Made by a program: the position numbers and the translations under genes | Shown: positions 1,580 through 49,582 of the stretch, one piece after another | How the letters are laid out: each line of letters begins with the position of its first letter | Position numbering within the stretch: position 1 is the stretch's first letter | The notes under the pieces: model-generated | Told to the model about the DNA's origin: nothing | The model's input: the letters and a program-made list of their open reading frames with translations, nothing else | Databases searched by the model: none | Assembly: GCA_009392915.1 (NCBI GenBank) | Contig: CP045477.1 | Location: 96,001 to 160,000 of the forward strand | Source: Candidatus Forterrea multitransposorum CG_2015-17_Forterrea_25_41 | Lineage (GTDB): Archaea; Iainarchaeota; Iainarchaeia; Iainarchaeales; CSSED10-239 | DNA: 64,000 nucleotides | Direction: 5' to 3'

Positions 1580-2305
1580 ATGAAAGATAATTATTTAGTT
1601 TCACTTTTAAAAGAACTTAATTTAACTGAATATGAAGCAAAAGCTCTTGTTACGTTATTTAAATTTTCAGAATCTGATGCTCCAACTATTAGTAGAAATT
1701 CTGAAATTCCAAAAACTAGAATTTATGATGTTTTAGATAGACTTAAAGATAAAGGTTTTGTTTTAGAAGTTTATAAAAGTCCTAAAACCTATAAAATAGT
1801 TAATCCTGAAGAAATTTTTAAAGGACTTTTAGATTTAAAACAAAATGAACTTTTAAATCTTTCAAAAAAAGTAGATGATGTTATTTTAAACTCAACATGG
1901 TCTTCTTATGCAAATAGTAATCCTGAAAAAGTATTACAAGTAAACAATATTAAAGATTATAATAAATTTTTATCACAAGAATTTGAAACTGCAGAAAAAG
2001 AAATACATGGTTTTACAAATCTTGATGAAAGAATTGATTCTTTAAAATCTGTTTTTACAAATAAAAATTTATCAATTAATATTTTAACAAATCCAGTTAC
2101 AAAAATACATGAAATTCCAAAACATGTAACTATTCAAGAAACTAACCATTCAATGGATGCTTTTGTTTTAGATAAAAAGAAAGTTATTATGGCTTTAAAT
2201 GATTTATCTTCTCCTAAAAAAGCATATAATTTAACTGTTCTTGAAAATAATCCTACCCTTGCAAATGCACTCTTATCTCATTTTAAGGATTACTGGAAAA
2301 AATAG
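1580..2305 (+). CDS. TrmB-family transcriptional regulator
   Basis: 241 aa; the N-terminal LTEYEAKALVTLFKF...ISRNSEIPKTRIYDVLDRLKDKGFV winged-HTH is typical of TrmB; C-terminal sensor-like domain. Confidence 0.55.
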   Translation: MKDNYLVSLLKELNLTEYEAKALVTLFKFSESDAPTISRNSEIPKTRIYDVLDRLKDKGFVLEVYKSPKTYKIVNPEEIFKGLLDLKQNELLNLSKKVDDVILNSTWSSYANSNPEKVLQVNNIKDYNKFLSQEFETAEKEIHGFTNLDERIDSLKSVFTNKNLSINILTNPVTKIHEIPKHVTIQETNHSMDAFVLDKKKVIMALNDLSSPKKAYNLTVLENNPTLANALLSHFKDYWKK

Positions 2306-2396
2306 TTTTTTTTAATATATTGAATACTTTTTTAAAGTTAACTATCTTTATAAATATATATAAGGGTATATTAACTTTTAAGAGGTAATAAATTAT

Positions 2397-4484
2397 ATGC
2401 AGTTAAAGAAACTAACTTTAGTTTTATTATTTTTATTTATTTTTTCCATACCAGTTTTTTCTTCTTCTATAACTCTTTATGTTTCCTCTCCTTTTTCCTC
2501 TTCATCTTCAAATTTTAGTATTTCTCCTTCACTTTCTTTTGACAAGTTATCTTTAGTTTCAGAAGATAATTTATCTTTATTAAGAGAGCAAAATATTATT
2601 GTTAAAGAAGAAATTATTAAAGAAAAAGAATCTTCTTTAGAAGATAATTCTCTGTTAGAAGAAATAAATTCTCCAAATCATATTTATGAAACTTATTTTC
2701 AAGATTCTGTAATGATTGGAGATGTTTATTTTCCAGAAGGTATAATTGATTCTTCTCAAGTAAGAGAAAGAAGAAATATTAACTCTCAGTCTACAGTTGA
2801 TAATATTTGGGGTACCACTCCATTAACTGGAGAATATCATATTCCTGTTTTTTTAGTTGATTTTTCAGATGTTCCACATACTCTTTCTAAAGAAGTTTTT
2901 GAAGAACAATTTAATTCTCCTCTTTACTTGGACGGTAATGGTACAAGTGTAAGTCAGTATTACAAGAAACAATCCTATGGTGAACTTGATATTACTTTTG
3001 ATGTTTATGATTGGAGAGAAATGCCTGAAACTTATGAATATTATAGTACAAGATTAGGTGTTTTTGGAGCTCAAACAATAGATCTTTTTGGAACTGGTCC
3101 AAATGCAATTGATTTAACTCAATATGATTCTGATAATGATGGTAGGATAGATGGTTTTGTAATTGTTCACGCTGGTTTTTCTTTACAGAACGCTGGTACT
3201 GGTCATATTAAGACATCTACTTTATTAATGTATTCTGATGAAATTTTAACCATTCAAGGTTTGCATTATGGTAATATAGCTGTTACTTCTGAGAGATATC
3301 CTAGTTGTTCTTCTGGTTTTAATGAAAATTTAATTCCATATCCAGATGATTGTAGAATTGGTGTTTTAGATCAAACACATGAGTTTGGTCATATTTTAGG
3401 TCTTCCAGACTTTTATGGTATTGATCCAAATACTGGTGGTCAATCTCCTGGTCTTCAAAACCTAACTATGATGATGATGTATGATGACATTCCTCAAAAA
3501 CCAATTAATTTAGATGCTTGGGCAAGATATTTTTTAGGTTGGATACAACCAACTGTAATTGAAGAGGGCATGGAAGGTGTTTATCCAGTTTATTCAATTG
3601 ACACCAATCCAGATGGTGCTTTTATTTTACAAGATCTAACTGAGATGGATGAACGTGAATTTTTTATAATTGAAAATAGATTTATGCAAAACTCCCCTTA
3701 TAATCAAGATACTTTTCTTTTAAACACTTCTCAACTAAATTGGGATTATTTAAATGGTCATTTTGGTGGAATTGCAGTTTATCATGTTGATGAGCAATAC
3801 ATTGAAGATAATTATCCAACTAACAGTATCATGTGGGATCCTGATGGAGATTTTTATGATGATACTATAGGGCATCCTGGAATCGTTTTTGAAGAAAATA
3901 TAAAATTTTCAGAAAATAATTGGGATTATTCATTAGGAGATTTATATTCTAGTGAACGTAATGCTGGTTTTGGAGATAATACTTTTGGTAATTTTGATAG
4001 ATACCAAAGATTTTATCCAGAATATAATATGTTATGGGATTATCACAATAAAGCCTATAATGGTAATTTAACTGGTGTTACTGTTGGCACTTTAAGTGGT
4101 AGTGGATCTATAGTTTATGCTTATCTTCAAAGTTATCAAGAAACTTTTAATGCTTTAATCTCTTCTCCAAAAAATAACAGATGGTATAAGTATACTAATA
4201 ATTTAAATTTCATTTCAAGTTATTATAATAATTTAGGAGATGTAAGTTGTGTTTGGGAAGATTCCAGTAATAATATTCTATCTCAAGATTGTGAATTTTC
4301 TGCAACTCCAGAAGATTTAGGTTTACCAATCAGTGAATGTTCTGAGAAAATCACTCTAACTTTAGAAATAACAGATCAAGAAACTGGTGATACAATTATT
4401 GATACTGTTGATATAAAGATTTATGAAACCATAAGAGATATTTGTGAGACTGCTCATAACAACACCCAAGCAGCCACAAAATAA
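2397..4484 (+). CDS. secreted zinc metalloprotease, M6 (immune inhibitor A)-like
   Basis: 695 aa; Sec-type signal peptide MQLKKLTLVLLFLFIFSIPVFSS; HEFGHILGLPDFYG zinc-binding motif (HExxHxxGxxD) of the M6/InhA family. Confidence 0.55.
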   Translation: MQLKKLTLVLLFLFIFSIPVFSSSITLYVSSPFSSSSSNFSISPSLSFDKLSLVSEDNLSLLREQNIIVKEEIIKEKESSLEDNSLLEEINSPNHIYETYFQDSVMIGDVYFPEGIIDSSQVRERRNINSQSTVDNIWGTTPLTGEYHIPVFLVDFSDVPHTLSKEVFEEQFNSPLYLDGNGTSVSQYYKKQSYGELDITFDVYDWREMPETYEYYSTRLGVFGAQTIDLFGTGPNAIDLTQYDSDNDGRIDGFVIVHAGFSLQNAGTGHIKTSTLLMYSDEILTIQGLHYGNIAVTSERYPSCSSGFNENLIPYPDDCRIGVLDQTHEFGHILGLPDFYGIDPNTGGQSPGLQNLTMMMMYDDIPQKPINLDAWARYFLGWIQPTVIEEGMEGVYPVYSIDTNPDGAFILQDLTEMDEREFFIIENRFMQNSPYNQDTFLLNTSQLNWDYLNGHFGGIAVYHVDEQYIEDNYPTNSIMWDPDGDFYDDTIGHPGIVFEENIKFSENNWDYSLGDLYSSERNAGFGDNTFGNFDRYQRFYPEYNMLWDYHNKAYNGNLTGVTVGTLSGSGSIVYAYLQSYQETFNALISSPKNNRWYKYTNNLNFISSYYNNLGDVSCVWEDSSNNILSQDCEFSATPEDLGLPISECSEKITLTLEITDQETGDTIIDTVDIKIYETIRDICETAHNNTQAATK

Positions 4485-4561
4485 AAAAATAAGTAAACCA
4501 TTTATATACTTTATGTTATATAATTTATAATATAATTATTTAAAATAAAAAATAAATTAAG

Positions 4562-7531
4562 GTGAATATTTTGATAAAAATAAAAAAAGGACAAATTTCT
4601 TTAGAAGCAATTATTATAATTGGTGTTATTGTTTTAGCAAGTATTATATTTGCGACATTCTATATTTCTAATGTTAATAAAAAAATAGATACTGCAAGTA
4701 ATCTAGATCCTAATTTTTCTGGAATGATTGGATCTGATGAAATGGGGTCAACTGATCCTATAACTATTGGTGAAGAACCAGGTCCAGGCCCAGGTCCAGG
4801 AGGAAGTACTTGTGGTGATAATATTATTGAAGGTACAGAAGATTGTGATGGTACTAATTTAGGTGGTGCTACATGTGAGTCTGAAGGTCAAGGTACAGGA
4901 GATTTATCTTGTAATTCAAATTGTACTTTTGATTATTCTGGTTGTTCTAGTCCAACAGCAAGTTATACAATAACTTCAAGTCATGGATCAAATGGAACTA
5001 TTTTTCCTTTAGGAGCTGTAACAGTTTTAGAAGGGGCAAGTAAAAAATTTAATTTGTATCCAAATGCAGGTTATGATGTAGATACTGTTTCAATTGATGG
5101 TGCAGAAGTTTCTCTTAGTGAAAGAAGAAGTTATACTTTTAATAATGTTACTTCCGGTCATACTATTCATGTAACTTTTAAACCTTATGCTTCAAATGAA
5201 CATATTATTTTTGCAAGTAGTGGTTCTCATGGAACCATAGATCCTGCAAGAAATAATACAGTTATAGAAGGAGATGATATTACTTTTACATTTAATCCAG
5301 ATACAGGATATCGTGTAGGTAATGTCTATATTGATGATACTACTGTTGGTTCAGAACAAATAGAGATTATTAATGATTTTTCTTCAAAAGATTCTGAAAA
5401 TAATAATTTATATTTTTCAGAAGAAGATGTTTTATATTTTGCATCTGATACAGGGACAGGTACTTCTTCAAATTTAGTTTATACTTTTGAAGATGTAGAT
5501 GATAGTCATACTATTCATGTAACTTTTATATCAAACACAACTCCTACATATACTTTAGAATATATTGCTGGAGCAAATGGTAGTATTTCTGGTCCAAATC
5601 CTCAAACTGTAAGTCAAGGAGAAGATGGTACAGAAGTATGTGCTGTTGCAGATGAAGGTTATGAATTTTTTAAATGGGATGATGATTATTATTCTGAATG
5701 TAGAACTGAAACAAATGTAACAAGTAATCAAACATATACTGTTATCTTTAATGAAAATGCAGGTCAAACAATGGCTATGAATTTAGAAGGTGTTGAATCA
5801 ACTCCAATAAATCAAAACTTTGATGTTGTTGTTAATACTTCTGAAACTCCAGGAACTGTAAGTTATGGTTTAGTTGCAGGATTATTAATTTATAATGATG
5901 TTGCAGGAGATTATTTGCCAACAAACAATTGTTCTTATAACGGAACTTTTGCTTCAAATCATACACTTGAAACAAATCAATCTCCAGGTATTGAAAATTA
6001 TACTTTTACATGTAATACTTCTGGAAACTATAAATTTACATTTACAGCAACAGATACAACTAACTCAACAAATGATGTTTCAAGAGATAAATTAATTACT
6101 GTTGTAAATAACCAAACAGCAGCACCAACATTTTCAATTGATGGAGGTACTTATTTTAATGATCAAACATTAACTTTAAGTTCAACAACTCCTAGTGCAA
6201 CTATAAAATACACAACTAATGGTACTATCCCAACTTGTACTACAGGAACAACTTATTCTCCTGCAAGTCCAATTCAAATTAATCAAATTTTAACAGTAAA
6301 AGCAATTGCTTGTAAATCTGGATATATTGATAGTCAAGTTGTTACAGAAATTTATAATTTAAAAGTTGGATATCCAGAACCAAGTGTTAATCCTGGTGTA
6401 TATTCTCAAGCACAGACAATTACTCTTTCAACAGAAACAATTGGTGCAACTTTGTATTATTCAACAGATGGTTCTGATGCTTTTGATGGAAGTGTTTACG
6501 TTCCAGGAGAAGAAATTATAATTTCAAAACCATATACTGAATTAAGAGTGGCAGGAGAAAAATCAAATTATAATGATAGTTCAGAATTTGATGAATATTA
6601 TTATATAAATGGTTATGAATCTCCAACTCCAAGTATGGTTTTTACAAATTATTATGGAGATGCATATAATCTTGTAGGTGCTGCAAATTTAACTCACTCA
6701 GATGTTTTCTTTGAAGATGAAGAAAATAATTTAGTAAGATTTGTTAATCCTAAATTAAATGGAGATTATTTTAACGGAAGTAATGCTTCAGGAGCTACAT
6801 TAATAGATTGTGAGGCATTTTGTTCTGAAAAGTATCTTGGAGGAACTTGTGATTCTTTTGATAAAACTAATTATTCTGGAAATGCAAATAATTTGATATA
6901 TTATAGAAATATGATTCCTGGTTCTGGTGGTGCAAATGATGTTTTCCCTTACACAATTGGGGGTGAGTTATCTAATTCTCCTCAATGGGCTTATGCTTCT
7001 GGAGCTATTGGTGGACCAGATAGAGTAGGATACTTCACTTGTGATTTTTCACACACCTCCAGTCCAGAAGATGCAGACTTTGGATTTATTGATTTATATA
7101 CTGAAGATTTATTATTAAATTATGGTGATCCATTTGATGGTACAGAATTCTATTATGATTCTTCAAGAGTAACTTTTGATAATGTTACAAAGTCTGGTTC
7201 AGAATATACTTATTCAGGTTTAAATGTTGTAGGTAATTTTGACACACCAGGCGCAACTGCTCCAACAGGAACAGTTTATATACTTTCAGATGATTTTTCA
7301 CAAGCTTGTGATGCTGTATGTGATGCTTTATATCAAGAAAGTTCTTGTGAAAATTATGATACAACAGATGTATATACTGCTAAAGGAGTTTCATATAATT
7401 ATTATCCTCCTGAATATGCAACAATATTTAATCCTAATTTAAGTACAGGTTATTATTGGACATCTGGAAGTCAACTTTTCTATGATGTTTGGTCAGAAGC
7501 TGTTCTTTCAGAAGTTACTTGTTCAAAGTAA
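4562..7531 (+). CDS. giant surface protein with archaeal class III (type IV pilin-like) signal peptide
   Basis: 989 aa; the N-terminus (M)IKIKKGQISLEAIIIIGVIVLASIIF has the KG/Q...E(+5) prepilin-peptidase motif plus a hydrophobic helix; a Cys-rich CGDNIIEGTEDCDGTN...C repeat (Myxococcus-type cysteine-rich repeat) follows; Thr/Ser/Asn-rich beta-domain body; the start may instead be the TTG at 4571, which sits 5 nt after SD AAGGTGA. Confidence 0.5.
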   Translation: MNILIKIKKGQISLEAIIIIGVIVLASIIFATFYISNVNKKIDTASNLDPNFSGMIGSDEMGSTDPITIGEEPGPGPGPGGSTCGDNIIEGTEDCDGTNLGGATCESEGQGTGDLSCNSNCTFDYSGCSSPTASYTITSSHGSNGTIFPLGAVTVLEGASKKFNLYPNAGYDVDTVSIDGAEVSLSERRSYTFNNVTSGHTIHVTFKPYASNEHIIFASSGSHGTIDPARNNTVIEGDDITFTFNPDTGYRVGNVYIDDTTVGSEQIEIINDFSSKDSENNNLYFSEEDVLYFASDTGTGTSSNLVYTFEDVDDSHTIHVTFISNTTPTYTLEYIAGANGSISGPNPQTVSQGEDGTEVCAVADEGYEFFKWDDDYYSECRTETNVTSNQTYTVIFNENAGQTMAMNLEGVESTPINQNFDVVVNTSETPGTVSYGLVAGLLIYNDVAGDYLPTNNCSYNGTFASNHTLETNQSPGIENYTFTCNTSGNYKFTFTATDTTNSTNDVSRDKLITVVNNQTAAPTFSIDGGTYFNDQTLTLSSTTPSATIKYTTNGTIPTCTTGTTYSPASPIQINQILTVKAIACKSGYIDSQVVTEIYNLKVGYPEPSVNPGVYSQAQTITLSTETIGATLYYSTDGSDAFDGSVYVPGEEIIISKPYTELRVAGEKSNYNDSSEFDEYYYINGYESPTPSMVFTNYYGDAYNLVGAANLTHSDVFFEDEENNLVRFVNPKLNGDYFNGSNASGATLIDCEAFCSEKYLGGTCDSFDKTNYSGNANNLIYYRNMIPGSGGANDVFPYTIGGELSNSPQWAYASGAIGGPDRVGYFTCDFSHTSSPEDADFGFIDLYTEDLLLNYGDPFDGTEFYYDSSRVTFDNVTKSGSEYTYSGLNVVGNFDTPGATAPTGTVYILSDDFSQACDAVCDALYQESSCENYDTTDVYTAKGVSYNYYPPEYATIFNPNLSTGYYWTSGSQLFYDVWSEAVLSEVTCSK

Positions 7532-7550
7532 TTTTAAAACAATTACTTTT

Positions 7551-7590
7551 AAAAAAGCTTAATTTCTTTTAAGCTTTTCTTTTTTTTTTC
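7551..7590 (+). terminator. hairpin plus T-tract terminator after the giant surface-protein gene
   Basis: AAAAGCTTAA-tttc-TTTTAAGCTTTT is a 10-bp perfect inverted repeat, followed by a T10 tract. Confidence 0.5.
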
Positions 7591-7715
7591 TTTTTATATA
7601 GCTTTTTTTAAATAATTATATTTAAAAACATTCCTCCATATATAATATTTATATATATAGTTCTTTTTTTTAAAAAAACTAAAAAACCAATGACACTATA
7701 AGGAGGTTGTTTGTC

Positions 7716-8255
7716 ATGTCTGAATTTATAAAATTCTCTGTACCTGAAGATTTAAGAGTTTTACAAGATGAAACTATTAAAAAATTATCAAAATCAGGTA
7801 AAATAAAAATAGGTATAAACGAAGTTACAAAAACAATTGAAAGAGGAAATGCAAAATTTGTTATTATTGCTGAAGATGTATCTCCTGCTGAAATTGTAAT
7901 GCATATACCAATAATCTCAAAAGAGAAAAAAATCCCTTTTTCTTATGCAAAAACTAAAGAAGATTTAGGTAAAATGGTTGGTATCTCTGCAAAAGCAAGT
8001 TGTGTTGCTATAACAGATGCTGGTTCAATGCAAAAAGAATTAACAACATTAATTGATAAGATTGAAGAAGTTTCTGGTGGTAAAAAAGCAGCTGTAAAAA
8101 CAGAAGATGTTAAAAAAGAAAAACCTTCTCCTAAAAAAGAAGAAGTAAAAAAAGAAGCTCCTTCTCCTAAAAAAGAAGAAGAAGTAAAAAAAGAAACACC
8201 TAAAGAAGAAAAACCAGAAAATAAAGAAGAAGTTAAAAAAGAAAACAAAGAATGA
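7716..8255 (+). CDS. rpl7ae: 50S ribosomal protein L7Ae with Lys/Glu-rich C-terminal extension
   Basis: GINEVTKTIERGNAKFVIIAEDVSPAEIVMHIPIISKEKKIPFSYAKTKEDLG matches the L7Ae/L30e fold; the likely start is the ATG at 7716, 9 nt after SD AGGAGG (track ORF begins at the TTG at 7707); the tail carries KPSPKKEEVKKE-type repeats. Confidence 0.8.
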   Translation: MSEFIKFSVPEDLRVLQDETIKKLSKSGKIKIGINEVTKTIERGNAKFVIIAEDVSPAEIVMHIPIISKEKKIPFSYAKTKEDLGKMVGISAKASCVAITDAGSMQKELTTLIDKIEEVSGGKKAAVKTEDVKKEKPSPKKEEVKKEAPSPKKEEEVKKETPKEEKPENKEEVKKENKE

Positions 8256-8267
8256 GGTGAATAATTT

Positions 8268-8480
8268 ATGGCTGATGAAGGAATACCTGCAGAAGTAGTA
8301 GAAGTTGTAGGTAGAACTGGTTCTCGTGGAGAAGCTACCCAAGTTCTTTGTAGAGTTATTGATGGTTATGAGAAAGGTAGAATTAAAAAAAGAAATGTCA
8401 AAGGTAATGTTAAGAAAGGAGACATTCTATTATTAATGAATCCAGAAACAGAAGCAAAGGACATTAAGGCACGTAGGTGA
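8268..8480 (+). CDS. rps28e: 30S ribosomal protein S28e
   Basis: 70 aa; AEVVEVVGRTGSRGEATQVLCRVIDG is the S28e signature; SD GAGGTGA. Confidence 0.85.
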   Translation: MADEGIPAEVVEVVGRTGSRGEATQVLCRVIDGYEKGRIKKRNVKGNVKKGDILLLMNPETEAKDIKARR

Positions 8481-8486
8481 TTTTTA

Positions 8487-8681
8487 ATGCAATGTACATT
8501 TTGCGGAAAAGAAGTTCCAAAAGGGACTGGTGTTTTATATGCAAAGAAAGATGGAACTACTTTTATATTTTGTTCAAGCAAATGTAAAATTAATGTTCTT
8601 GAAAAAAAATTCAAAGCACATAAAACCAAATGGACAAATAAATATCATGTAGAAAAAGAAAGACATTTAAAGAAAAAATAA
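8487..8681 (+). CDS. rpl24e: 50S ribosomal protein L24e
   Basis: 64 aa; the CTFCGKEVPKGTG...FCSSKC zinc ribbon is typical of L24e; the L7Ae-S28e-L24e order is the conserved archaeal cluster. Confidence 0.85.
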   Translation: MQCTFCGKEVPKGTGVLYAKKDGTTFIFCSSKCKINVLEKKFKAHKTKWTNKYHVEKERHLKKK

Positions 8682-8781
8682 TTTTTTTTTCTTTTTCTTT
8701 TTTCTTCAAATATTTCTAAATATAAATATTTTTTTTAATATAAATTAAATATTTAAAATAAAAATAAATAAAAGGTGGTTT

Positions 8782-10524
8782 TTGTTGTTTAGACAACCAA
8801 TAATTACAATAATGGGACACATTGATTCTGGAAAAACAACTTTTCTAGATAAGATCAAGGGTACCGGTATTGCAAAACTAGAAGCTGGTAAAATAACACA
8901 GCATATTGGTGCAACAGAGATATCTTTAGATGTTATTTTAAAAATTTGTTCTCATCTTTTAGAAAAATATAAATTTGAAGTAACTATTCCAGGTTTATTA
9001 TTTATTGATACTCCAGGACATAATGCTTTTGATAATTTAAGAGAGAGAGGTGGATCTTTAGCAGATTTAGTTGTTTTAGTTGTTGATATTAATAAAGGTC
9101 TTCAAGCACAAGATATTGAAACTTTAGAAATATTAAAAATGTATAAAGTTCCATTTATTATTGCTGCAAATAAAATAGATTTAGTTTCAGGATATTTTCA
9201 AGAAGGAAAAGATATCTCTCAAGCTTTAGAAAAACAATCAAAATCAACTGAAGATAAAATAGATGAATTAATCTACAAAATTGTTGGACAGCTTTATGAC
9301 AAAGGTTTTCAAGCTGAAAGGTTTGATAGAATCTCTGACTTTAAAAAACAAATTGCAATTATTCCAACCTCTTGTGAAAAAGAATATGGTTTAACAGAAG
9401 CAATTTTATTTTTATCAGTTCTTTCTCAAAAGTTTTTAGGTCCAAGAATAACACTTGATTCTTCTCAAAAACCACAAGCAACAATCTTAGAGGTTGGAGA
9501 AATAACTGGTATTGGAAAAACAGTTGATGCAATTGTTTATCAAGGAGTTTTAAAAGTAAAAGATAAAGTTTCTTTTCTTTCAAGAGAAGGAGTTATTGAA
9601 ACAAAAATAAAATCTCTTCTTAAATTAAATGTAATGAGTGCAATTAATAAAAAAAGAGATTATAAAAACGTAGATTTTGTATCAGCTGCAAGTGGAGTTA
9701 AAATAGTTGGTCCTGATCTTGATAAATGTATTCCAGGAAGTATTATTGTTTCTTCTGAAGATTTAGATGCTGTTGAAAGATTAAAAGAAAAAACATTAAA
9801 TAGTTTTGTATCATCAGATATTGATGGTGCTTTTCTAAAAACAGATACTTTAGGATCTTTAGAAGCATTAATTAAACTTCTTACAAAAAATAAAATTCCA
9901 ATTGCAAAAGCAGATATTGGTCCTATTACACAAAAAGATATTTTAGAGATAAAAGTTTTAAATCAAAGAGATAAGAAAAAAGGAGTTTTGTTTTTATTTA
10001 ATGCAAATATTTCAAAAGATTTTTTAGAAGATTTAAATAAAGAAAAAATTCCAGTTTTTAAAAATAATATAATCTATAAACTTATAGAAGAACATGCCGA
10101 TTGGCTTTTAAAAGAAAACAAAATTGAAAAAGATAGTTTACTTAAGGAAATTATTTTTCCTTGTGAAATTAAAGTTTTAAAAAACCATATATTCAGAACT
10201 AGTAAACCTGCAATTGTTGGAGTTAAAGTTGTTGCAGGAAAATTAACTCCTGGTTCAAGAGTATTATTAAATGATAAAGAAATTGGAGTTGTTGAAGGAA
10301 TTCAAGCTGAAGGAAAATCTTTAGATATTTTAGAAAGAGGTTCTGAAGCTGCAATTTCAATTAAACATGCAGTATATTTAAAAGATTTTAAAGAGGAAGA
10401 TGTTTTTTCAGTATATGTTCCTGATTCCTCTATTAAAAAACTTGAACAAATGATAGATGATCTTACAAATGAAGAACAAGAAATGTTATATAAAATTAAA
10501 TCAAAAAGAATTAATGTAAATTAA
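8782..10524 (+). CDS. infB: translation initiation factor aIF5B (IF2 homolog)
   Basis: 580 aa; GHIDSGKTTFLDKI G1 motif and DTPGH G3 motif, plus downstream beta-barrel domains; TTG start 3 nt after GGTGG. Confidence 0.8.
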   Translation: MLFRQPIITIMGHIDSGKTTFLDKIKGTGIAKLEAGKITQHIGATEISLDVILKICSHLLEKYKFEVTIPGLLFIDTPGHNAFDNLRERGGSLADLVVLVVDINKGLQAQDIETLEILKMYKVPFIIAANKIDLVSGYFQEGKDISQALEKQSKSTEDKIDELIYKIVGQLYDKGFQAERFDRISDFKKQIAIIPTSCEKEYGLTEAILFLSVLSQKFLGPRITLDSSQKPQATILEVGEITGIGKTVDAIVYQGVLKVKDKVSFLSREGVIETKIKSLLKLNVMSAINKKRDYKNVDFVSAASGVKIVGPDLDKCIPGSIIVSSEDLDAVERLKEKTLNSFVSSDIDGAFLKTDTLGSLEALIKLLTKNKIPIAKADIGPITQKDILEIKVLNQRDKKKGVLFLFNANISKDFLEDLNKEKIPVFKNNIIYKLIEEHADWLLKENKIEKDSLLKEIIFPCEIKVLKNHIFRTSKPAIVGVKVVAGKLTPGSRVLLNDKEIGVVEGIQAEGKSLDILERGSEAAISIKHAVYLKDFKEEDVFSVYVPDSSIKKLEQMIDDLTNEEQEMLYKIKSKRINVN

Positions 10525-15897: not shown

Positions 15898-17103
15898 TTG
15901 ATTAATATGTTTTCAAAAAAAATTATTTTAGTATCTGTTTTATTTTTACTTACATCTTTATTTTCGGGGTTGATTTTCTCTGAAAGATATATAGATAGTT
16001 CTTATGTTCAAGTTATTGCTCAAGAAGTAAGTCCTGAACCAGTAGAGCCTGGTCAAGATTTTTTACTAAAAGTTAGAGTTCATAATTTTGGAACAGTGGA
16101 TGCTAAAAATGTAAAAATTAATCTTGATTTAAATTATCCTTTTTATTTAAAAAATACAAGTGAGTCTTATATTGACTTTAATTCGATTTGTTCTAATTGT
16201 TCTGCAGAAAATACATATTATTTTACAGTTTCAAGTTCTGCAGTTTCAGGGATATATCCAATACATTTTAATATATCTGAAATAAATAATGAAACTGTTT
16301 CTTTTAAACCTCAAATAATAGATATTTCCATATTAGGTAAACCTGATTTAGTTTTAGAAACCATAAAAGTAGATCAAAATATTTCTGCCGGAGATATATT
16401 TAATATTAAATTTTTATTAAGGAATATAGGTACTGGGAATTCTAGAAATATAAAAATAATTCCTAATTCTGATGATTTTATGCTTATTGGGACAAATACT
16501 AAATGGTTTGAAGAATTAGGTCCCAATAAAGAAATTATTTTTGATTTAAATTTTATTTCAAACAAAGATTTAATTTCAAATAGTTATATTTTTCCTATAG
16601 ATCTTGAATTTTTAGGAGAAAAACAAAATTTTTATACCTCTTCATATAATATTGGAATTAATCTTTTAGGAAAAGCAGATTTATCTTTACAAAATTTAAA
16701 AATTACTCCTTTAAACCCTTCTTTAAAAGATTTAATTAATTTTGAAGGAATTATTGAAAATATAGGAAATGGAAAAGCAAATAATGTTTCTTTAGAATTA
16801 TTTGTTTCAAATGATGAGAATTATAAATATTATATTGGTCAATTAAATAAAGATGATGATGCTCCTTTTTATTTTAATGAAATTAAATTTAATTCTGTTG
16901 GAAATAATAAAGTAAATTTGATTGTAAATTATGATGATGATTACGGTAATTATAAAATAGAAATTCCTTTAAATCAAAATATAAATAAATCTAATAATTT
17001 ATCTTTATTTTTTATAGTTTTATTTTTATTTTTGGTTTTATTTTTTAGTTTGTATTTATTAAAAAATAATAAACACAATAAAAATAAAAAAATAAAGAAT
17101 TGA
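15898..17103 (+). CDS. secreted CARDB-domain repeat protein with C-terminal TM anchor
   Basis: signal peptide; at least 3 repeats of a VEPGQDF...NFGTVDAKNVKIN / NIGTGNSRNIKII / NIGNGKANNVSLEL beta-sandwich (CARDB-like); C-terminal hydrophobic helix plus KNNKHNKNKK. Confidence 0.55.
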   Translation: MINMFSKKIILVSVLFLLTSLFSGLIFSERYIDSSYVQVIAQEVSPEPVEPGQDFLLKVRVHNFGTVDAKNVKINLDLNYPFYLKNTSESYIDFNSICSNCSAENTYYFTVSSSAVSGIYPIHFNISEINNETVSFKPQIIDISILGKPDLVLETIKVDQNISAGDIFNIKFLLRNIGTGNSRNIKIIPNSDDFMLIGTNTKWFEELGPNKEIIFDLNFISNKDLISNSYIFPIDLEFLGEKQNFYTSSYNIGINLLGKADLSLQNLKITPLNPSLKDLINFEGIIENIGNGKANNVSLELFVSNDENYKYYIGQLNKDDDAPFYFNEIKFNSVGNNKVNLIVNYDDDYGNYKIEIPLNQNINKSNNLSLFFIVLFLFLVLFFSLYLLKNNKHNKNKKIKN

Positions 17104-17114
17104 TTTAGATTTAT

Positions 17115-18314
17115 ATGAATAAAAAAGATATTAAGCTAATGTTTTTTTTAGCTTATAAAAATATAATTAAAAGTAAATCTACTTTTATTGTAATTGTAGC
17201 TGTAATGGCTATGAGTTTTTTGTCAATAACTTTTTTTTCTGCAATTATTGATGGGTTAAGTTATGAATTTGAAGAGTCGATGATTGATGGTCAAACAGGG
17301 CATTTAATGATCGAACCATCTAATGAAGAAAGTTTTATATTTAATTCTGATAGATTAGAAAAAAATATTTCTAAAATTCCAGGAGTAATTGGTGTTTCTT
17401 CAAGATTAGAATCAAATATTTTAATTACTTATAAAAATGAAGAGCTAGGGGCACCTGTTTTCTTTATTGATCCTATTGATGAACAAAAAGTATCTAATTT
17501 TCATGAAAGTTTAATAGAAGGTAGTTTTCTTTCATATAAAGATACATCTGAAATTATTATTGGTTCTGATTTACTAGAACAGTATGCGCCTATAGATGAT
17601 ACTAAGAAAAGGTTTAATCTTAGAATAGGGGATAATATTATTTTAACTTTTAATAATGGTTATAAAAAAGAATATAAAATCAAAGGTATTTTTAAAACAG
17701 GTTCTAAGTTTAATGATGATAAAATTTTAATTAATAAAGAAGAATATTTTTCAATATTTAATAAAGAAGATATTTCTCATAAAATACTTGTTAAACTTCC
17801 TTCAAGAGGTCTTGAAAAAGAATATATTCAAAAGATAGAAGCTTTAGGAATAATTGAACAGATTAACCCTTGGGAAACTAAGATTGGTATGATTAAACAA
17901 TTTGTAGGAAGTCTTCAAATTACAAATCAGATAACTGGTTTTATAGGTTTATTAACTGCATTTGCAACAATTTACATAATTATTTTTATAAATGTAACTA
18001 ATAAAAGAAAGCAGATAGGTATATTAAAAGCTATAGGTATAAAAAAAAAAATTATTCTTGGATCATATATTATTCAATCTTTTATTTATGGTTTTGTAGG
18101 TGTTATTTTTGGAAATATTATTATGCAAATTTTGTTGGCTTTACTTGCAAGTTATCCATTATCTATGCCTATTGGGGATGTAGTTCCATTACTAACAATA
18201 GGTAAATTATTAACTACCTCTTTTATTTTAATTTTAGCCTCTATTGTTGCAGGTTTTTTCCCTTCTAGAAAAGCTTCTAATGATAATATCTTAGATGCTA
18301 TATTTGGAGGATAG
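17115..18314 (+). CDS. ABC transporter permease, FtsX/MacB-like
   Basis: 399 aa; N-terminal TM, large extracytoplasmic domain, then 3 C-terminal TMs typical of the FtsX-like permease (DUF214). Confidence 0.65.
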   Translation: MNKKDIKLMFFLAYKNIIKSKSTFIVIVAVMAMSFLSITFFSAIIDGLSYEFEESMIDGQTGHLMIEPSNEESFIFNSDRLEKNISKIPGVIGVSSRLESNILITYKNEELGAPVFFIDPIDEQKVSNFHESLIEGSFLSYKDTSEIIIGSDLLEQYAPIDDTKKRFNLRIGDNIILTFNNGYKKEYKIKGIFKTGSKFNDDKILINKEEYFSIFNKEDISHKILVKLPSRGLEKEYIQKIEALGIIEQINPWETKIGMIKQFVGSLQITNQITGFIGLLTAFATIYIIIFINVTNKRKQIGILKAIGIKKKIILGSYIIQSFIYGFVGVIFGNIIMQILLALLASYPLSMPIGDVVPLLTIGKLLTTSFILILASIVAGFFPSRKASNDNILDAIFGG

Positions 18315-18317
18315 ATT

Positions 18318-19007
18318 ATGATTAAAAATATTATTGAAGTAAATAAACTTGAAAGAATATATTCTAATGGAATTGTTAAAACTTATGCCTTAAAAGACGT
18401 TTCTTTAAGTATAAAACCTGGTGAATTTGTTGCAATTATGGGGCCTAGTGGTTCTGGAAAAAGCACTTTACTTCATCAGTTAGGACTGTTAGATACTCCA
18501 ACTAATGGAAGTATTATTATTGATAATGAAGATGTATCGAAATTAACTGATAAACAAAAAACTACCTTTAGATTAGAAAAATTAGGTTATGTTTTTCAGT
18601 CATATAATTTATTACCAGAACTTAATGTTATTGAAAATGTTTTTTTAACCTCTATGGCTAAAGGTTTAGATCCTAAAGAATATAATTTGAGAGCAAAAGA
18701 TATTCTTGAAAAAGTAGGTTTAAAAGATAGATTGTATTATTATCCTTCTGAACTTTCTGGAGGTCAACAACAAAGAGTTTCTATTGCAAGAGCATTAGTT
18801 AATAAACCTAAAATTTTATTTGCAGATGAACCAACTGCAAATCTTGATTCTGATTCTTCTCAAGATATAATTGATTTATTTAAAAAATTAAATAAAGAAA
18901 TTAATCAAACTATTGTTATGGTAACACATGAATTAGAAGAAGGTAAAAAAGCAGATAGGATAATTTGGATTAAAGATGGTATTCTAGATAAGTCTGTAAA
19001 AGTTTAA
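18318..19007 (+). CDS. ABC transporter ATP-binding protein (MacB/LolD type)
   Basis: GPSGSGKST Walker A, LSGGQQQRVSIARAL signature, ILFADEPT Walker B. Confidence 0.85.
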   Translation: MIKNIIEVNKLERIYSNGIVKTYALKDVSLSIKPGEFVAIMGPSGSGKSTLLHQLGLLDTPTNGSIIIDNEDVSKLTDKQKTTFRLEKLGYVFQSYNLLPELNVIENVFLTSMAKGLDPKEYNLRAKDILEKVGLKDRLYYYPSELSGGQQQRVSIARALVNKPKILFADEPTANLDSDSSQDIIDLFKKLNKEINQTIVMVTHELEEGKKADRIIWIKDGILDKSVKV

Positions 19008-22380: not shown

Positions 22381-25300
22381 ATGAAAAATAAGATACTAAT
22401 AATTTTTTTATTTACAATTTTACTTTCAACTTTTATTTTTTCAGATCCTGTTGTAAAGATAAATGATAATTTAACAACATATACAAACAGTGATTCTGAA
22501 AACTTCTATGTTGAAGTAAGTAATACTGGAGATAATTGTGAAGTTGAATCTGATTTTATAAGTATTAATTTAAGTTCAGATGCAGCAAGTTCTTTTCCAT
22601 ATTTAATATACTGTAATCTTGAAAGAAATTATAGTGGTTATTTTTCAGTAGATTTTTCAACAAACACACCAACACCTCCAATACCAAATGTTTTAGTTAA
22701 TAATGAAGATACTGTTATTGCAGACTATAATGGGTTTACTGCTAATTTAGTAGTTGACACAATAAATACTATAACAGGAACTTTTGATTTAAATTCTGTT
22801 GATTCAGTTGTAAATAATTACTATAAAGGAGATGTTGAAGTTACTTCTTTAAGTTCTTTTTCAGATGCACATTCTGGTTTAAAAGAATATTACATTTATA
22901 TTGTTGAAGTTGATTCAGTAAATGACTATAGAGATGATTATTATAAGAGATTAATTGTAGATGTTAATGAAACTTCTATTGATTTAGGTACATCTACAAC
23001 TGTTTCTGATGGAAATTATTTTGTTTTAGTTGAAGCTTTAGATTATGCTGAAAATCTTGCAATACCTTCTCAAGTAATTTTAAATAAAAAAAATATGTAT
23101 GTTGATAATACAGCACCTCAAGTAACTTCTTTTAGTTTAGGAAGTTTTTCAGAAGGTACAACTTATTATGTTCCTTCAACAACTACTACTTTGACTTTAT
23201 TAATTGAAGATGATGGTGTAGGGGTAAGGAATGAACCTCTATATACACAAATAGATAGAGATAGTGTAAAGTTAGCAGATTATAATTCTATATTAGGCGG
23301 TTTCTTTTTTGATTTTACAACAGTTGATTATGATATTGATGGTTCATATGAGCTTGCAGCAACAGATCTTTTAGGTAATTTAAATGAAAAAACATTTTCA
23401 ATAATGATAGATGAAACTTCTCCAACAACTCCAACAATTTCAACAGTTACAAGAGCTGTAGATAATAATGTTACAATTTCAAATTGGGGTACTTCAACTG
23501 ATTCTGGAAGTGGTTTAAAAGAATACAAAGTCTATAGGTCAACTTCTTCTTTTACAGAAGTTTCAAATCAAGATTTAATTTGTACAGTTTCTGCAGCTGC
23601 TTCAAAAACTTGTCTTGATTCAACTTCAAAATCAGATGATACAAGATATTATTATGGTGTTACTGCAGTTGATAATGCAGGAAATAATAGTCCAGTTGTA
23701 ACTGCAAGCATAAAAACAGGTCCTGAACTTGATATTTATATTGATTTAGAAGATTCTGATTTTGTAAATACTGTTACTCCAGAGATAACTTTAGAGTATG
23801 GTTCTGATGTTAATGCTGTTAGATTTAGTTGTAATGCTTCAACTTTTACATCATGGGTTGAAGTTTCGGGAACTTCTGAGGTTTATGAAAGTTTTAATGT
23901 AACTTCTGGAAATGGATGTAATACAGATCAAGGAGATAAAATAATTTATGTTGAAGCAAGAAGTGAAGACGATCCTTATCTTATTACTAGAGAATCTTTT
24001 GAGTTTGAACTTGATTCAAAAGCACCAACAATACCTAGTAACATAGAAGTTTTAGAACAAGCAAATGGTTCTTTAAATATTTCTTGGACAAGCTCAACAG
24101 ATGTAAATGGTAGTGGTCTTGAAGAATACAGGATTTATTATTCAGAATCTGAGTCAGTTTCTAAATCCTCACAATATATGACTTCTTCAGATGAAGAGTA
24201 TATTTTTAATCCTAATGAAGATAAAACATTTTATTTTAAAATATCTGCAATTGATGAAGCATTAAATGAATCTGATCTTTCATCTATTGCTTCTGGAACT
24301 GCAAAAAGATTTGGACCTTCTTTTACTTTTAATGCAAGCCCAAAAAATTTAATTGATGATGTTTATTATTTAAAAAAAGGAAATGTTTTATTTACTATTA
24401 CAAGTAGTGAAGAATTAAAACAAACACCTATTATTAGACTTAAAATTGGTAATTCACCTTATAAATCAATTTCTGCAATTTATAGTAATTTAATTACAAC
24501 TTTTAATTATTCTTTAGAAGAAAGTGGAGATTCAATTTTAGAAATTACAGGTACAAATAATAATAATGAAACAACAACTGATACTTTTAATTTTATAGTA
24601 GATGCAGAAGTTCCAACTTTTACTGCTGACTATAATTTCTTTGAAGATACTAAATTATATGAATTTAAAATAAGTGATTTTTCAGATGATGTTTTCAGAG
24701 TTCAATATTTATTTAATAATGTTGAAGAAGTTTGTTTTATTGAAGATTCAAATAACAATTATCTTTGTTCACTTGATTCTACTCTTTATAAAGATGGTAA
24801 TCATAAAATGTATGTTTTAGTTTATGATAGAGCATTAAATTATGAAACTGAAATTATTTCTTTTGAAATAGATAATGTTGATGAAGCTTTAATTTTAAAA
24901 GAAAATTTAGTTGCTGAAATTAATACAAATATTTTTACAATTGAAGATAGAATTTCTTTCCTTCAAGCAATCTCTTTAGAAGTTTCTCAAGATGTTTTAG
25001 ATAAATTTTCTGAAGCTAAAGAAAAAGTTGTTCTTGCAAAATCTCTAGAAGATTCAAATAATTTTTCAGAAGCTGTAAATACTTATACTTCTGTAAATAA
25101 TTCTTTACTTGAGATATTAGAAGTTTTACCTACAGAAAATGTTTTAAAAACAAAAACTATTGAAATTGATCTTTTAGATAATTCTTTTGATCTTAATACA
25201 GTTATTTTGGATCAAAATATATTAACTGATAATTTGTCTTTTTATGATGTTAATAATCAAGACCTAAATTTTATATCAGTTTCAAGAGAATTTAGTGTTT

Positions 25301-25959
25301 TTGAAGTATCTGGTCAAAACTTTTATTCTAGTAATTTAATTTTTGTAAATGACTCTAATGTAGATAAAGTAATTTCTTTTATTGAAGTAATACCTAAAGA
25401 ATTTGAAAAATCTTCAGATAATATTTATTTTGATAGAAATATTGTTGTAATTGATAAAGATCCAATAATTCTTTATAATTTAGTAATTCCTAAAAATTCT
25501 TCTCTTACAACAAAATATATTAGTCAAACAGCAATTACAAGTTTTGATATTTTAACTAAATTTGATGCAATTGTTTACAAGTCTCCTCTTCTTTTAACTG
25601 GATCTGTAAATTTAGAAGATTTAAATTTTGAAAAACCTTTAATTGATAGTAAATCTTTATTTATGATAGCAGTTGTTCTTTTAATAATAATTATCTTACT
25701 TTTAGTAATCTGGATGGTGGCTTCTGGTCGTAAGAAAAAAGAAGATGTCTTTAAAGAAATGGAACCTAAGGATGCTATGAATAAATATCTTGGAAATAAA
25801 CTAAATAGTAATTCTCAAGAAAAATCTTCAACTGATTCTTCTTCATCTAAAACTTTAGAAGAAAAAGAAGAAGAGCATAAAAGTGATCTTGAAAAGAAAA
25901 AGAAGTATGATAGTAATTATGAGTTTATTTTAGATGCTGTTAAAAGAAGTAATAAATAA
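22381..25959 (+). CDS. large secreted surface protein with C-terminal TM anchor (S-layer/adhesin-like)
   Basis: 1192 aa; Sec signal peptide; Thr/Ser/Asn-rich beta-rich body with Ig/FN3-like segments; C-terminal LFMIAVVLLIIIILLLVIWMVASGRKKK anchor plus a 70-aa charged tail. Confidence 0.5.
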   Translation: MKNKILIIFLFTILLSTFIFSDPVVKINDNLTTYTNSDSENFYVEVSNTGDNCEVESDFISINLSSDAASSFPYLIYCNLERNYSGYFSVDFSTNTPTPPIPNVLVNNEDTVIADYNGFTANLVVDTINTITGTFDLNSVDSVVNNYYKGDVEVTSLSSFSDAHSGLKEYYIYIVEVDSVNDYRDDYYKRLIVDVNETSIDLGTSTTVSDGNYFVLVEALDYAENLAIPSQVILNKKNMYVDNTAPQVTSFSLGSFSEGTTYYVPSTTTTLTLLIEDDGVGVRNEPLYTQIDRDSVKLADYNSILGGFFFDFTTVDYDIDGSYELAATDLLGNLNEKTFSIMIDETSPTTPTISTVTRAVDNNVTISNWGTSTDSGSGLKEYKVYRSTSSFTEVSNQDLICTVSAAASKTCLDSTSKSDDTRYYYGVTAVDNAGNNSPVVTASIKTGPELDIYIDLEDSDFVNTVTPEITLEYGSDVNAVRFSCNASTFTSWVEVSGTSEVYESFNVTSGNGCNTDQGDKIIYVEARSEDDPYLITRESFEFELDSKAPTIPSNIEVLEQANGSLNISWTSSTDVNGSGLEEYRIYYSESESVSKSSQYMTSSDEEYIFNPNEDKTFYFKISAIDEALNESDLSSIASGTAKRFGPSFTFNASPKNLIDDVYYLKKGNVLFTITSSEELKQTPIIRLKIGNSPYKSISAIYSNLITTFNYSLEESGDSILEITGTNNNNETTTDTFNFIVDAEVPTFTADYNFFEDTKLYEFKISDFSDDVFRVQYLFNNVEEVCFIEDSNNNYLCSLDSTLYKDGNHKMYVLVYDRALNYETEIISFEIDNVDEALILKENLVAEINTNIFTIEDRISFLQAISLEVSQDVLDKFSEAKEKVVLAKSLEDSNNFSEAVNTYTSVNNSLLEILEVLPTENVLKTKTIEIDLLDNSFDLNTVILDQNILTDNLSFYDVNNQDLNFISVSREFSVFEVSGQNFYSSNLIFVNDSNVDKVISFIEVIPKEFEKSSDNIYFDRNIVVIDKDPIILYNLVIPKNSSLTTKYISQTAITSFDILTKFDAIVYKSPLLLTGSVNLEDLNFEKPLIDSKSLFMIAVVLLIIIILLLVIWMVASGRKKKEDVFKEMEPKDAMNKYLGNKLNSNSQEKSSTDSSSSKTLEEKEEEHKSDLEKKKKYDSNYEFILDAVKRSNK

Positions 25960-46443: not shown

Positions 46444-46518
46444 GGGAGTGTAGCTTAGTCTGGTTGGAGCACTCGACTGATAATCGAGAGGCCGCAGGTT
46501 CGAATCCTGCCATTCCCA
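46444..46518 (+). tRNA. tRNA-Ile (anticodon GAU)
   Basis: GGGAGTG-TA-GCTT-AGTCTGGTTG-GAGC-A-CTCGA-CTGATAA-TCGAG-AGGCC-GCAGG-TTCGAAT-CCTGC-CATTCCC-A; no CCA encoded. Confidence 0.85.
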
Positions 46519-46559
46519 CTTTCTATTTTTATATAGATTTTAAAAAAAGAGGATAATTT

Positions 46560-49450: not shown

Positions 49451-49525
49451 GGAAGTGTAGCTTAGTCTGGTTAGAGCATTGGTCTTATACACCAAAGGTC
49501 GCAGGTTCGAATCCTGCCATTTCCA
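49451..49525 (+). tRNA. tRNA-Ile (anticodon UAU)
   Basis: GGAAGTG-TA-GCTT-AGTCTGGTTA-GAGC-A-TTGGT-CTTATAC-ACCAA-AGGTC-GCAGG-TTCGAAT-CCTGC-CATTTCC-A; the anticodon loop reads C-U-U-A-U-A-C; near-identical backbone to tRNA-Ile(GAU). Confidence 0.75.
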
Positions 49526-49582
49526 CTTTTTTTTAAAAATAAAGCTTTATAAATCTAATTAACTACTATATATTAGATAATT

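Follow-up and report, generated by a model that had tools for sequence, protein, structure and literature searches.

A 64,000-nucleotide stretch of the genome of Candidatus Forterrea multitransposorum (contig CP045477.1, positions 96,001 to 160,000; hereafter the window) carries two adjacent genes on its forward strand, which we call ORF1 and ORF2 (ORF, open reading frame). ORF1 encodes a predicted secreted metalloprotease of the M6 family. ORF2 encodes a protein of almost 1000 residues that in all likelihood begins with an archaeal class III (pilin-type) signal peptide. The features of the pair are as follows; ORF2 residues are counted from the TTG start at 4571.

2397..4484, + strand: ORF1, predicted M6 (immune inhibitor A-like) zinc metalloprotease, 695 aa; PF05547, TIGR03296, InhA2 profile and fold matches.
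3378..3410, + strand: zinc-binding/catalytic motif HEFGHILGLPD (HEXXHXXGXXD), ORF1 aa 328-338; sequence and homologue alignment.
4485..4570, + strand: intergenic region, with a B recognition element (BRE)/TATA-like AAACCATTTATATAC at 4495-4509 and an AGGTGA ribosome-binding-like element at 4560-4565.
4571..7531, + strand: ORF2.
4571..4591, + strand: class III leader MIKIKKG (MNILIKIKKG, 10 aa, from GTG 4562); cleavage predicted after Gly7.
4592..4705, + strand: mature N-terminus QISLEAIII..., hydrophobic alpha-1 helix and conserved FATFYISNVNKKIDT segment, aa 8-45; hydropathy, AlphaFold2 and N-module hidden Markov model (HMM).
4706..4804, + strand: Gly/Pro-rich flexible linker (...GEEPGPGPGPGG), aa 46-78; sequence and predicted local distance difference test (pLDDT) score <35.
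4805..4948, + strand: six-cysteine head, one DUF4215-like Cys-rich unit, aa 79-126; BLASTP and a stand-alone homologue.
4949..5770, + strand: three InlB B-repeat-like (Flg_new_2) beta domains, the second with an insertion, aa 127-400; Pfam on sub-fragments and AlphaFold2.
5771..6124, + strand: immunoglobulin (Ig)-like beta-sandwich domain rich in N-X-S/T, aa 401-518; weak Big_9/PKD/GOLD-type matches alone.
6125..6616, + strand: two CHB_HEX_C_1/Fn3_assoc domains, aa 519-682; Pfam, 59.4 and 36.7 bits.
6617..7528, + strand: lineage-specific C-terminal region, aa 683-986 (304 aa); two similar four-Cys patterns and no Pfam match.

ORF1 is composed of a Sec-type signal (aa 1-~23), a candidate pro-region (aa ~19-96), the catalytic domain and C-terminal beta-sandwich domains. 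The motif residues H328, E329, H332, G335 and D338 are invariant in 54 of 54 ORF1 homologues. The Pfam family Peptidase_M6 (PF05547) was matched with 42.1 bits (cutoff 22), and TIGR03296 with 108 bits, 2.8 below its cutoff of 110.8. When PDB sequences were searched, the single ORF1 sequence found no match; only the profile of the 54 sequences gave one, to InhA2 of Bacillus anthracis (4YU5, E 1.9e-29). The AlphaFold2 model of ORF1 had a pLDDT of 80.9, and its best Foldseek matches were 4YU5/4YU6 (E 3.8e-14, TM-score 0.41). By analogy with the InhA2 zymogen, residues 19-96, which the model predicts poorly, may form a pro-segment. Because the motif is invariant, the family profile and InhA2 are matched in sequence and fold, and a Sec signal is present, we predict that ORF1 is an active-looking secreted M6 metalloprotease. 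An earlier note, made from the sequence of the locus alone, had already read ORF1 as a secreted InhA/M6-like enzyme, and the Sec-type signal, the intact zinc motif and the PF05547 score bear it out. ORF1 shares with InhA of Bacillus the zinc site, the profile and fold match to the zymogen structure, and secretion; it differs in being archaeal, in its identity of only ~12% in the structural alignment and in falling just under the TIGR03296 cutoff.

The M6-ORF2 spacer is near-identical in three relatives whose partner proteins share only 83-85% identity (window 4485-4570; locus L001, 9915-10000; locus L004, 719-803). Because this spacer, including the BRE/TATA-like element, is almost perfectly conserved, it suggests that ORF2 has its own regulated promoter. 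A sigma-70 promoter scan of the locus was set aside as not relevant to an archaeon. ORF2 can start at GTG 4562, giving 989 aa, or at TTG 4571, giving 986 aa, the latter after the Shine-Dalgarno-like AGGTGA at 4560-4565. In the ORF2 cluster, the TTG is used by the database representative and by the NCBI member, and one JGI member is 989 aa long. Conservation cannot choose between the two codons because both are conserved in relatives. Whichever codon is used, the distance of the K-G-Q motif from the N-terminus is 6-9 residues (M(NIL)IKIKKG|QISLEAIIIIGVIVLASIIFATFYI), so the objection that the true start is internal fails and the position that the earlier note gave to this motif holds.

Around this motif, K(-2), G/A(-1), Q(+1), S/A(+3) and E(+5) are invariant in 14 of 14 homologous N-termini with otherwise unrelated bodies. 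The HMM of the N-terminal module (helix, linker and Cys head; the N-module) scores 73 bits on ORF2, within a range of 64-82 bits. Residues ~9-33 form the sole hydrophobic segment of ORF2 by Kyte-Doolittle analysis, and there is no C-terminal anchor; AlphaFold2 places a helix at aa 11-38. Residues 8-45 are thus predicted to be a pilin-type assembly or anchor helix. The Pfam family Class_IIIsignal (PF04021) gives 23.5 bits on ORF2, with a gathering score of 23.7; a precomputed PF04021 match for protein P0005 is flagged 'faint'. This marginal shortfall, together with the result that no prepilin peptidase was found in the sequence at hand (window, flanks and related loci), could be taken to mean that K-G-Q...E is a chance resemblance and that ORF2 is either secreted by the ordinary Sec route or a type II membrane protein. 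However, a 122-aa homologue of ORF2 passes PF04021 with 29.3 bits, the N-module HMM scores are high throughout, and the curated NCBI name of an identical protein is 'class III signal peptide-containing protein'. The neighbouring M6 proteases, moreover, carry a clearly different, ordinary Sec signal. We exclude a chance resemblance because the five key positions are invariant in the 14 N-termini in spite of their unrelated bodies, and consider that explanation very improbable. It is highly likely, judged from these sequence comparisons, that ORF2 carries an archaeal class III signal peptide of the DUF361/EppA type, in agreement with the earlier note.

In Methanococcus maripaludis, such leaders consist of 5-13 aa ending in Gly, followed by Gln at +1 and Glu at +5 (PMC3875500), and the signature QXSXEXXXL with Q+1/E+5 marks substrates of the dedicated prepilin peptidase EppA (PMC2910488, PMC3875500). 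ORF2 fits this DUF361 signature at Gln +1, Ser +3 and Glu +5, whereas its position +9 is Ile, not Leu. By analogy, the motif suggests an EppA-like peptidase rather than FlaK. ORF2 resembles the DUF361 (PF04021) proteins of the M. maripaludis Epd pili in its short basic leader up to Gly, in these three residues and in the hydrophobic helix that follows. It differs from them, besides the Ile at +9, in a body ~10 times larger, in a head made of a six-Cys DUF4215-like unit and in its position outside an epd-type operon; the organism is a DPANN archaeon, and an EppA gene was not located in the sequence searched. Larger pilin-like members, MMP0600/0601/0709, also exist in M. maripaludis (PMC2910488, PMC3875500).

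The statement of the earlier note that class III peptides normally head small pilins was too strong. Their occurrence on non-pilins, namely substrate-binding proteins and proteases, has been known since the FlaFind survey (PMC2910488), and large adhesin-like proteins recur in archaeal type IV filament loci (PMC4858521; bioRxiv 10.64898/2026.04.22.720090). Since this theme is already known and the NCBI label is already given, a large protein headed by a class III peptide is no anomaly. The substrate-binding proteins of the Sulfolobus bindosome and the adhesins of archaeal type IV filament loci are likewise extracellular, are not pilins and are presented at the surface by means of a class III signal with a hydrophobic N-terminal helix, and large Ig-rich adhesins associate with archaeal type IV filament systems (PMC4858521; bioRxiv 10.64898/2026.04.22.720090; PMC2910488). 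Those proteins are linked to ATP-binding cassette (ABC) transporters or lie inside filament operons, whereas ORF2 is linked to a protease gene amid ribosomal-protein genes.

Behind the helix, ORF2 continues with the linker, whose length and sequence differ among partner proteins, and the six-Cys head. The head is 50-63% identical to ~10 tandem units in a Myxococcota DUF4215 protein, P0083 (BLASTP, E 3e-15); Pfam DUF4215 (PF13948) gives 13.7 bits on it vs 27. The earlier note had taken CGDxxxEGxEDCDxxN for a repeat within ORF2. This did not hold: CGDxxxEGxEDCD occurs once only (aa 81), and it is in other proteins that the unit is found in tandem. The three Flg_new_2 domains scored 18.7, 20.3 and 40.9 bits on sub-fragments, and the AlphaFold2 beta domains reached a pLDDT of 60-86. 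ORF2 is composed of 11.5% T, 10.2% S and 8.0% N, is Gly-rich and contains 20 Cys. Together with the beta-type modules found by Pfam and AlphaFold2, this matches its earlier description as a Thr/Ser/Asn-rich beta protein. There are 26 N-X-S/T sequons in ORF2, compared with 16 +/- 3 in shuffled sequences, and they cluster at aa 422-514. This profile of sequons and composition is what one would expect of an archaeal surface glycoprotein. We considered and ruled out that ORF2 is the S-layer protein, as it has no S_layer domain and relatives have a separate S_layer_C protein.

The C-terminal 304 aa had no homologues beyond their own 50% cluster in an exhaustive HMMER search of 1.84 billion representatives. 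This region tends to be the least conserved part of ORF2 among close relatives, with 68-81% identity compared with 81-96% elsewhere in the protein. Its two four-Cys patterns lie at 747/751/760/824 and 913/917/926/984. An internal duplication was considered, and because its support is weak (E 0.002 over 21 residues) we report only the repeated Cys pattern. The C-terminal region is a candidate for the distal, ligand-recognising tip of ORF2. The full-length AlphaFold2 model, built from 5 sequences, had a pLDDT of 48. It is credible for the N-terminal helix and the central beta-sandwich domains alone, and is unreliable for the C-terminus and the Cys head. Foldseek with this low-confidence model returned only beads-on-a-string adhesins and generic Ig arrays, which we did not use to assign a function, and the ORF2 profile had no match among PDB sequences.

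The N-terminal part of ORF2 occurs elsewhere as a complete protein. Residues 1-116 align end to end with the entire 122-aa class III protein of a related Iainarchaeum genome (locus L016; 36% identity, E 1e-17), which consists of leader, helix, linker and six-Cys unit alone. Its gene is located ~2 kb from a gene for a T2SSE-family secretion ATPase (770 aa in full), and in a second strain a similar 118-aa gene lies ~3 kb from the corresponding ATPase gene. In a related lineage, a T2SSE ATPase gene is ~9-11 kb from the M6/class III pair. Because aa 1-116 match a whole stand-alone protein, ORF2 appears to be a complete small pilin-like module to which ~860 residues of further modules have been grafted.

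This construction is that of the bacterial modular type IV pilins, such as PilB and PilC of Streptococcus sanguinis and CofB of enterotoxigenic Escherichia coli, in which functional modules are grafted via a linker onto a small pilin module. The grafted modules are presumed to be shown at the filament tip for adhesion, and multi-domain examples of up to 860 aa exist, also in bacteria of the candidate phyla radiation (PMC8179133). ORF2 combines the two elements that define a modular pilin, namely a self-sufficient N-module and extra modules (three Flg_new_2 domains, the Ig-like domain, two CHB_HEX_C_1 domains and the orphan region). It differs from the bacterial proteins in its signal, which is of the archaeal type (Q+1), so that we do not count ORF2 in the bacterial set defined by the IPR012902 N-methylation motif, and in an N-module that lacks an alpha/beta globular domain of the canonical kind. 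Nor do the bacterial examples show a conserved pairing with an M6 gene of its own.

This pairing is the most general property of the locus. In 11 divergent Iainarchaeota-type lineages, an M6 gene and a class III gene are neighbours with the same direction and 40-190 nt between them. The partner bodies measure 328-1578 aa, M6 identity goes down to ~35%, the genomic contexts differ and both gene orders occur. In relatives whose partner is 83-85% identical to ORF2, the order TrmB-M6-class III is kept. An M6 gene of 51% identity precedes the gene for an 814-aa class III homologue in another context (EF-1alpha/S10, PolD). Behind an M6 gene of 45% identity, the class III protein encoded is 1578 aa long and contains two or more Cys units, nine CHB_HEX_C domains and an RCC1 propeller. 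Where M6 identity is 38%, the gene order is the reverse, and that for a 387-aa class III protein comes ahead of M6. With the M6 profile, seven further lineages were found among the GTDB species representatives, their partners being 328-1109 aa long. Five in-family M6 loci had no visible partner, and in each of them at least one flank is hidden by a contig end; only a distant M6 (28% identity, L032) is clearly without a class III partner. ORF1-type enzymes are an Iainarchaeota-specific M6 subfamily that almost always has a class III gene next to it. The N-module HMM gave 20 matches in 464 kb of archaeal loci. Those not adjacent to an M6 gene were the two small ATPase-linked genes and one pair located 4-9 kb upstream of an M6 gene. 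No match was found in 1.04 Mb of bacterial M6 loci, and ORF2 was the only one in the 64-kb window.

The partner bodies are mutually unrelated (GLUG/M26_N, DUF285, RCC1, Cys-rich orphans), and the helix-linker-Cys-head module is the sole part common to all partners. It is fairly probable that the M6 and class III genes are functionally coupled, and the view of the earlier note that protease and class III surface protein form a cassette is strengthened by the pairing in 11 divergent lineages and different contexts. Because linkage to M6 persists across unrelated bodies, coupling via the conserved N-terminal module is a live possibility. One form that it might take is that M6 is a dedicated maturation or shedding protease, which cuts the linker or head of its class III neighbour and so activates or releases the ectodomain. 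Persistence of the linkage whatever the body is consistent with such a role, and the exposed Gly/Pro linker is a plausible cleavage site. However, direct evidence is lacking, the linker sequences are not conserved, small stand-alone homologues occur without an adjacent M6 gene, and InhA-type enzymes are secreted proteases of broad specificity. We regard a dedicated maturation protease as improbable.

Several further observations were made at these loci. The class III partners in L008, L011, L012, L016, L021 and L073 (328-732 aa) have a common C-terminal motif, ...[FY][IV]NQPDxSE...C...G..C[FI]S[LI]G, which defines a second partner subfamily, with an uncharacterised C-terminal domain, among the shorter partners. 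Beside the M6 gene of L008, a 177-aa protein (8522-9055, - strand) has an N-terminal transmembrane helix followed by about six tandem CGDGxCxxxExCxxCExDCGxC units, a Cys repeat that differs from the ORF2 head. In L009 and L015 (JAQUYT01, JAQVTI01), two tandem M6 genes are followed by genes for radical S-adenosylmethionine (SAM) enzymes and a Cys-rich 47-aa ORF (…CSVCHCDCGCGSDCPCSSCY). The radical-SAM genes and this ORF could be a cluster resembling those for ribosomally synthesised and post-translationally modified peptides, next to the M6 paralogues.

Type IV filament systems are present in some DPANN archaea, including a 'system 1' of the Epd type, with DUF361 pilins and a dedicated peptidase (bioRxiv 10.64898/2026.04.22.720090; PMC6393860; PMC9563170). 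We searched for such machinery around the pair. A multi-transmembrane/GxGD scan of all archaeal loci detected only a presenilin-type signal peptide peptidase, and a metagenome scan seeded with the related T2SSE ATPase yielded only relatives of 77-93% identity, not the source organism. The large size of the partners (328-1578 aa), which would sterically disfavour polymerisation, the flexible Gly/Pro linker after the helix and the lack of pilus genes beside any pair would suit a membrane-tethered surface protein that never enters a filament, its class III peptide being cleaved or a mere signal-anchor and M6 being a co-expressed exoenzyme. Class III peptides on non-filament proteins are documented, for example in the Sulfolobus bindosome (PMC2910488; bioRxiv 10.64898/2026.04.22.720090). 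On the other hand, the N-module is homologous over its full length to ~120-aa pilin-like proteins encoded 2-3 kb from a type-IV-filament ATPase gene, and E+5 and the alpha-1 helix are strictly conserved, as for helix packing on other pilins. A protein that is only tethered is thus a minority possibility in our judgement, and incorporation of ORF2 into a filament has a little less than an even chance.

We slightly favour the reading that ORF2 is a modular pilin-headed surface adhesin acting with the secreted M6 protease in an attachment-plus-digestion cassette. In this model, an EppA-like membrane prepilin-type aspartyl peptidase, encoded elsewhere in the genome, would remove MIKIKKG. The exposed alpha-1 helix starting with Gln and the small disulfide-bonded six-Cys head would then mount ORF2 at the cell surface. 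Its most likely place would be in an Epd/Tad-like type IV filament, as a tip or minor subunit of low copy number; failing that, the alpha-1 helix would keep ORF2 in the membrane. A glycosylated stalk of beta-sandwich modules, ~860 aa long, would project outward and end in the fast-evolving, lineage-specific, Cys-containing tip, which would bind a target. The ORF1 protease would be secreted by the Sec route, probably as a zymogen, and would act outside the cell on the bound target or substrate, or on the adhesin. Motifs, architecture, N-module homology, active site and pairing are observed; cleavage, filament incorporation, adhesion and the protease target are all inferred from them.

Several points weigh against this reading. 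The 64-kb window (Pfam, ~50 larger ORFs) yielded no A24 prepilin peptidase, no FlaJ/TadC platform and no secretion ATPase, and neither did the 10 kb that follow it or, in a syntenic relative of 83% identity, the 10 kb that precede it. None of these genes lies next to any M6/class III pair, and the pair is never embedded in a pilus operon. The PF04021 score of ORF2 is 0.2 bits under the gathering score. The ORF2 head does not come near the size of the globular domain in a canonical pilin, and a body of ~950 aa would fit only at the filament tip. Because the AlphaFold2 model is poor, the stalk/tip geometry is not established. Adjacency does not show the substrate of the protease, and the lifestyle of Iainarchaeota, symbiont or free-living, is unsettled.

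The modules of the stalk also admit another use. CHB_HEX_C_1 and Flg_new_2 are domains that one typically meets in glycosidases and surface enzymes of bacteria. Many M6 homologues from archaea contain fused CHB_HEX_C domains, and it has been proposed that archaea scavenge nutrients with functionalised type IV machineries (bioRxiv 10.64898/2026.04.22.720090). The pair may then serve extracellular feeding and not attachment to a partner cell: the CHB_HEX_C/InlB-B modules would bind glycans or detritus, and M6 would digest proteins for uptake by an organism of little biosynthetic capacity. However, the partner bodies are extremely diverse, from the RCC1 propeller and GLUG/M26_N to DUF285 and Cys-rich orphans, an orphan tip that tends to be the most variable domain is more typical of the recognition of variable biological surfaces than of a common polymer, and no glycosidase or transporter gene is linked to the pair. 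We therefore think a feeding cassette rather unlikely. The adhesin reading can also be extended: the M6 protease and the pilin-headed protein would be one machine characteristic of Iainarchaeota, a filament-displayed or helix-anchored arm, whose hypervariable tip would select a partner cell or substrate, and a dedicated protease, coupled via the helix-linker-Cys-head, that opens the bound surface or releases the arm. This extension is speculative and, in our estimate, unlikely.

The window is archaeal, with a G+C content of ~24%. The nearest public relatives of ORF1 and ORF2 are metagenome-assembled genomes labelled Candidatus Iainarchaeum sp., Candidatus Diapherotrites archaeon or 'archaeon', and the assemblies of the organism reach up to 839,632 bp. 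The organism has a tiny genome, and the closest relatives of both genes identify it as a DPANN member (Iainarchaeota/Diapherotrites). Iainarchaeota are part of the DPANN kingdom Nanobdellati. The pair is located in a neighbourhood of ribosomal-protein and translation-factor genes, in the order S9, S2 | TrmB, ORF1, ORF2 | L7Ae, aIF5B, S6e, aIF2-gamma. Over ORF1 and ORF2 the G+C content is 28-29%, compared with 24% in the 2 kb directly upstream and 19-28% in most of the window (window 2001-8000). The gene directly upstream of ORF1 is as follows.

1580..2305, + strand: TrmB-family winged-helix regulator; Pfam TrmB, 70.8 bits.

TrmB may regulate the M6/class III pair. Its gene is upstream of the pair in the related loci L001/L002 and L008 as well; because it is absent there in L005 and L006, we ruled it out as a core cassette member and place it outside the conserved core.

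Other parts of the window deserve mention. L7Ae (7707-8255, +) has a Lys/Glu/Pro-rich C-terminal tail of ~55 aa (KKEKPSPKKEEVKKE...), a low-complexity sequence that accounts for several spurious ORFs on the antisense strand (7943-8342). At 15898-19007 (+) there is a MacB-like trio, whose arrangement is kept in relatives: a CARDB-domain protein, secreted and with a transmembrane helix at its C-terminus, then an FtsX permease and an ABC ATPase. Large surface proteins with a Sec signal are encoded at 22381-25959 (+; 1192 aa, with Big_13) and 60142-62544 (+; 800 aa, with faint Fn3_assoc/CHB_HEX_C), and a 1289-aa neighbour just past the window end (L090 12470-16339) is of the same kind. The three are almost without annotation, and the region is rich in big extracellular proteins. 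Proteins of 464 aa (36792-38186, +) and 457 aa (49583-50956, +) are alike in their N-terminal multi-transmembrane regions and C-terminal ends. Pfam gives no match for either, even at E<=1, and the two seem to represent an uncharacterised family of membrane proteins with two copies in 13 kb. A tRNA-Ile with anticodon TAT (UAU) lies at 49451-49526 (+), and the usual tRNA-Ile(GAT) at 46444-46519. In most archaea, AUA is read by a modified CAU tRNA; a genomic UAU tRNA-Ile is uncommon and is reported from a few reduced archaea.

The SPEARE proteins of Nanohaloarchaeota unite protease, adhesion and endonuclease domains in one giant polypeptide, the protease being of the serine type and the nuclease a restriction endonuclease. 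The Iainarchaeota pair resembles them as a DPANN surface system that combines a protease with adhesion modules; for SPEARE, a role in host interaction has been proposed (PMC9563170). The Iainarchaeota system differs in being made of two genes and in having a metalloprotease, a pilin-type N-terminus and no nuclease. In the literature searched, the coverage of which was limited, we found no M6/class III or InhA/DPANN association, no DUF4215-like Cys unit as a pilin head, no explicit modular-pilin construction in an archaeon and no lineage-wide pairing of a class III protein with an M6 protease. The cassette is probably a surface attachment-plus-digestion unit of a broadly known kind. Because its parts are of known kinds and ORF2 is already correctly labelled in NCBI, the gain is incremental, not conceptual.

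In conclusion, we found in Iainarchaeota a conserved pair of genes for an M6 protease and a class III protein with a pilin-like N-terminus. To our knowledge, the ways in which DPANN archaea recognise and exploit partners or substrates are largely unknown, and we know of no cultured representative of Iainarchaeota. If the pair is indeed one attach-and-cut machine, a swap of the body would change its target range. The two-gene module, with its interchangeable bodies and orphan tip, is a concrete and testable candidate for surface recognition and attack in this phylum. It would also extend to archaea the 'modular pilin' principle, which has so far been surveyed in bacteria.

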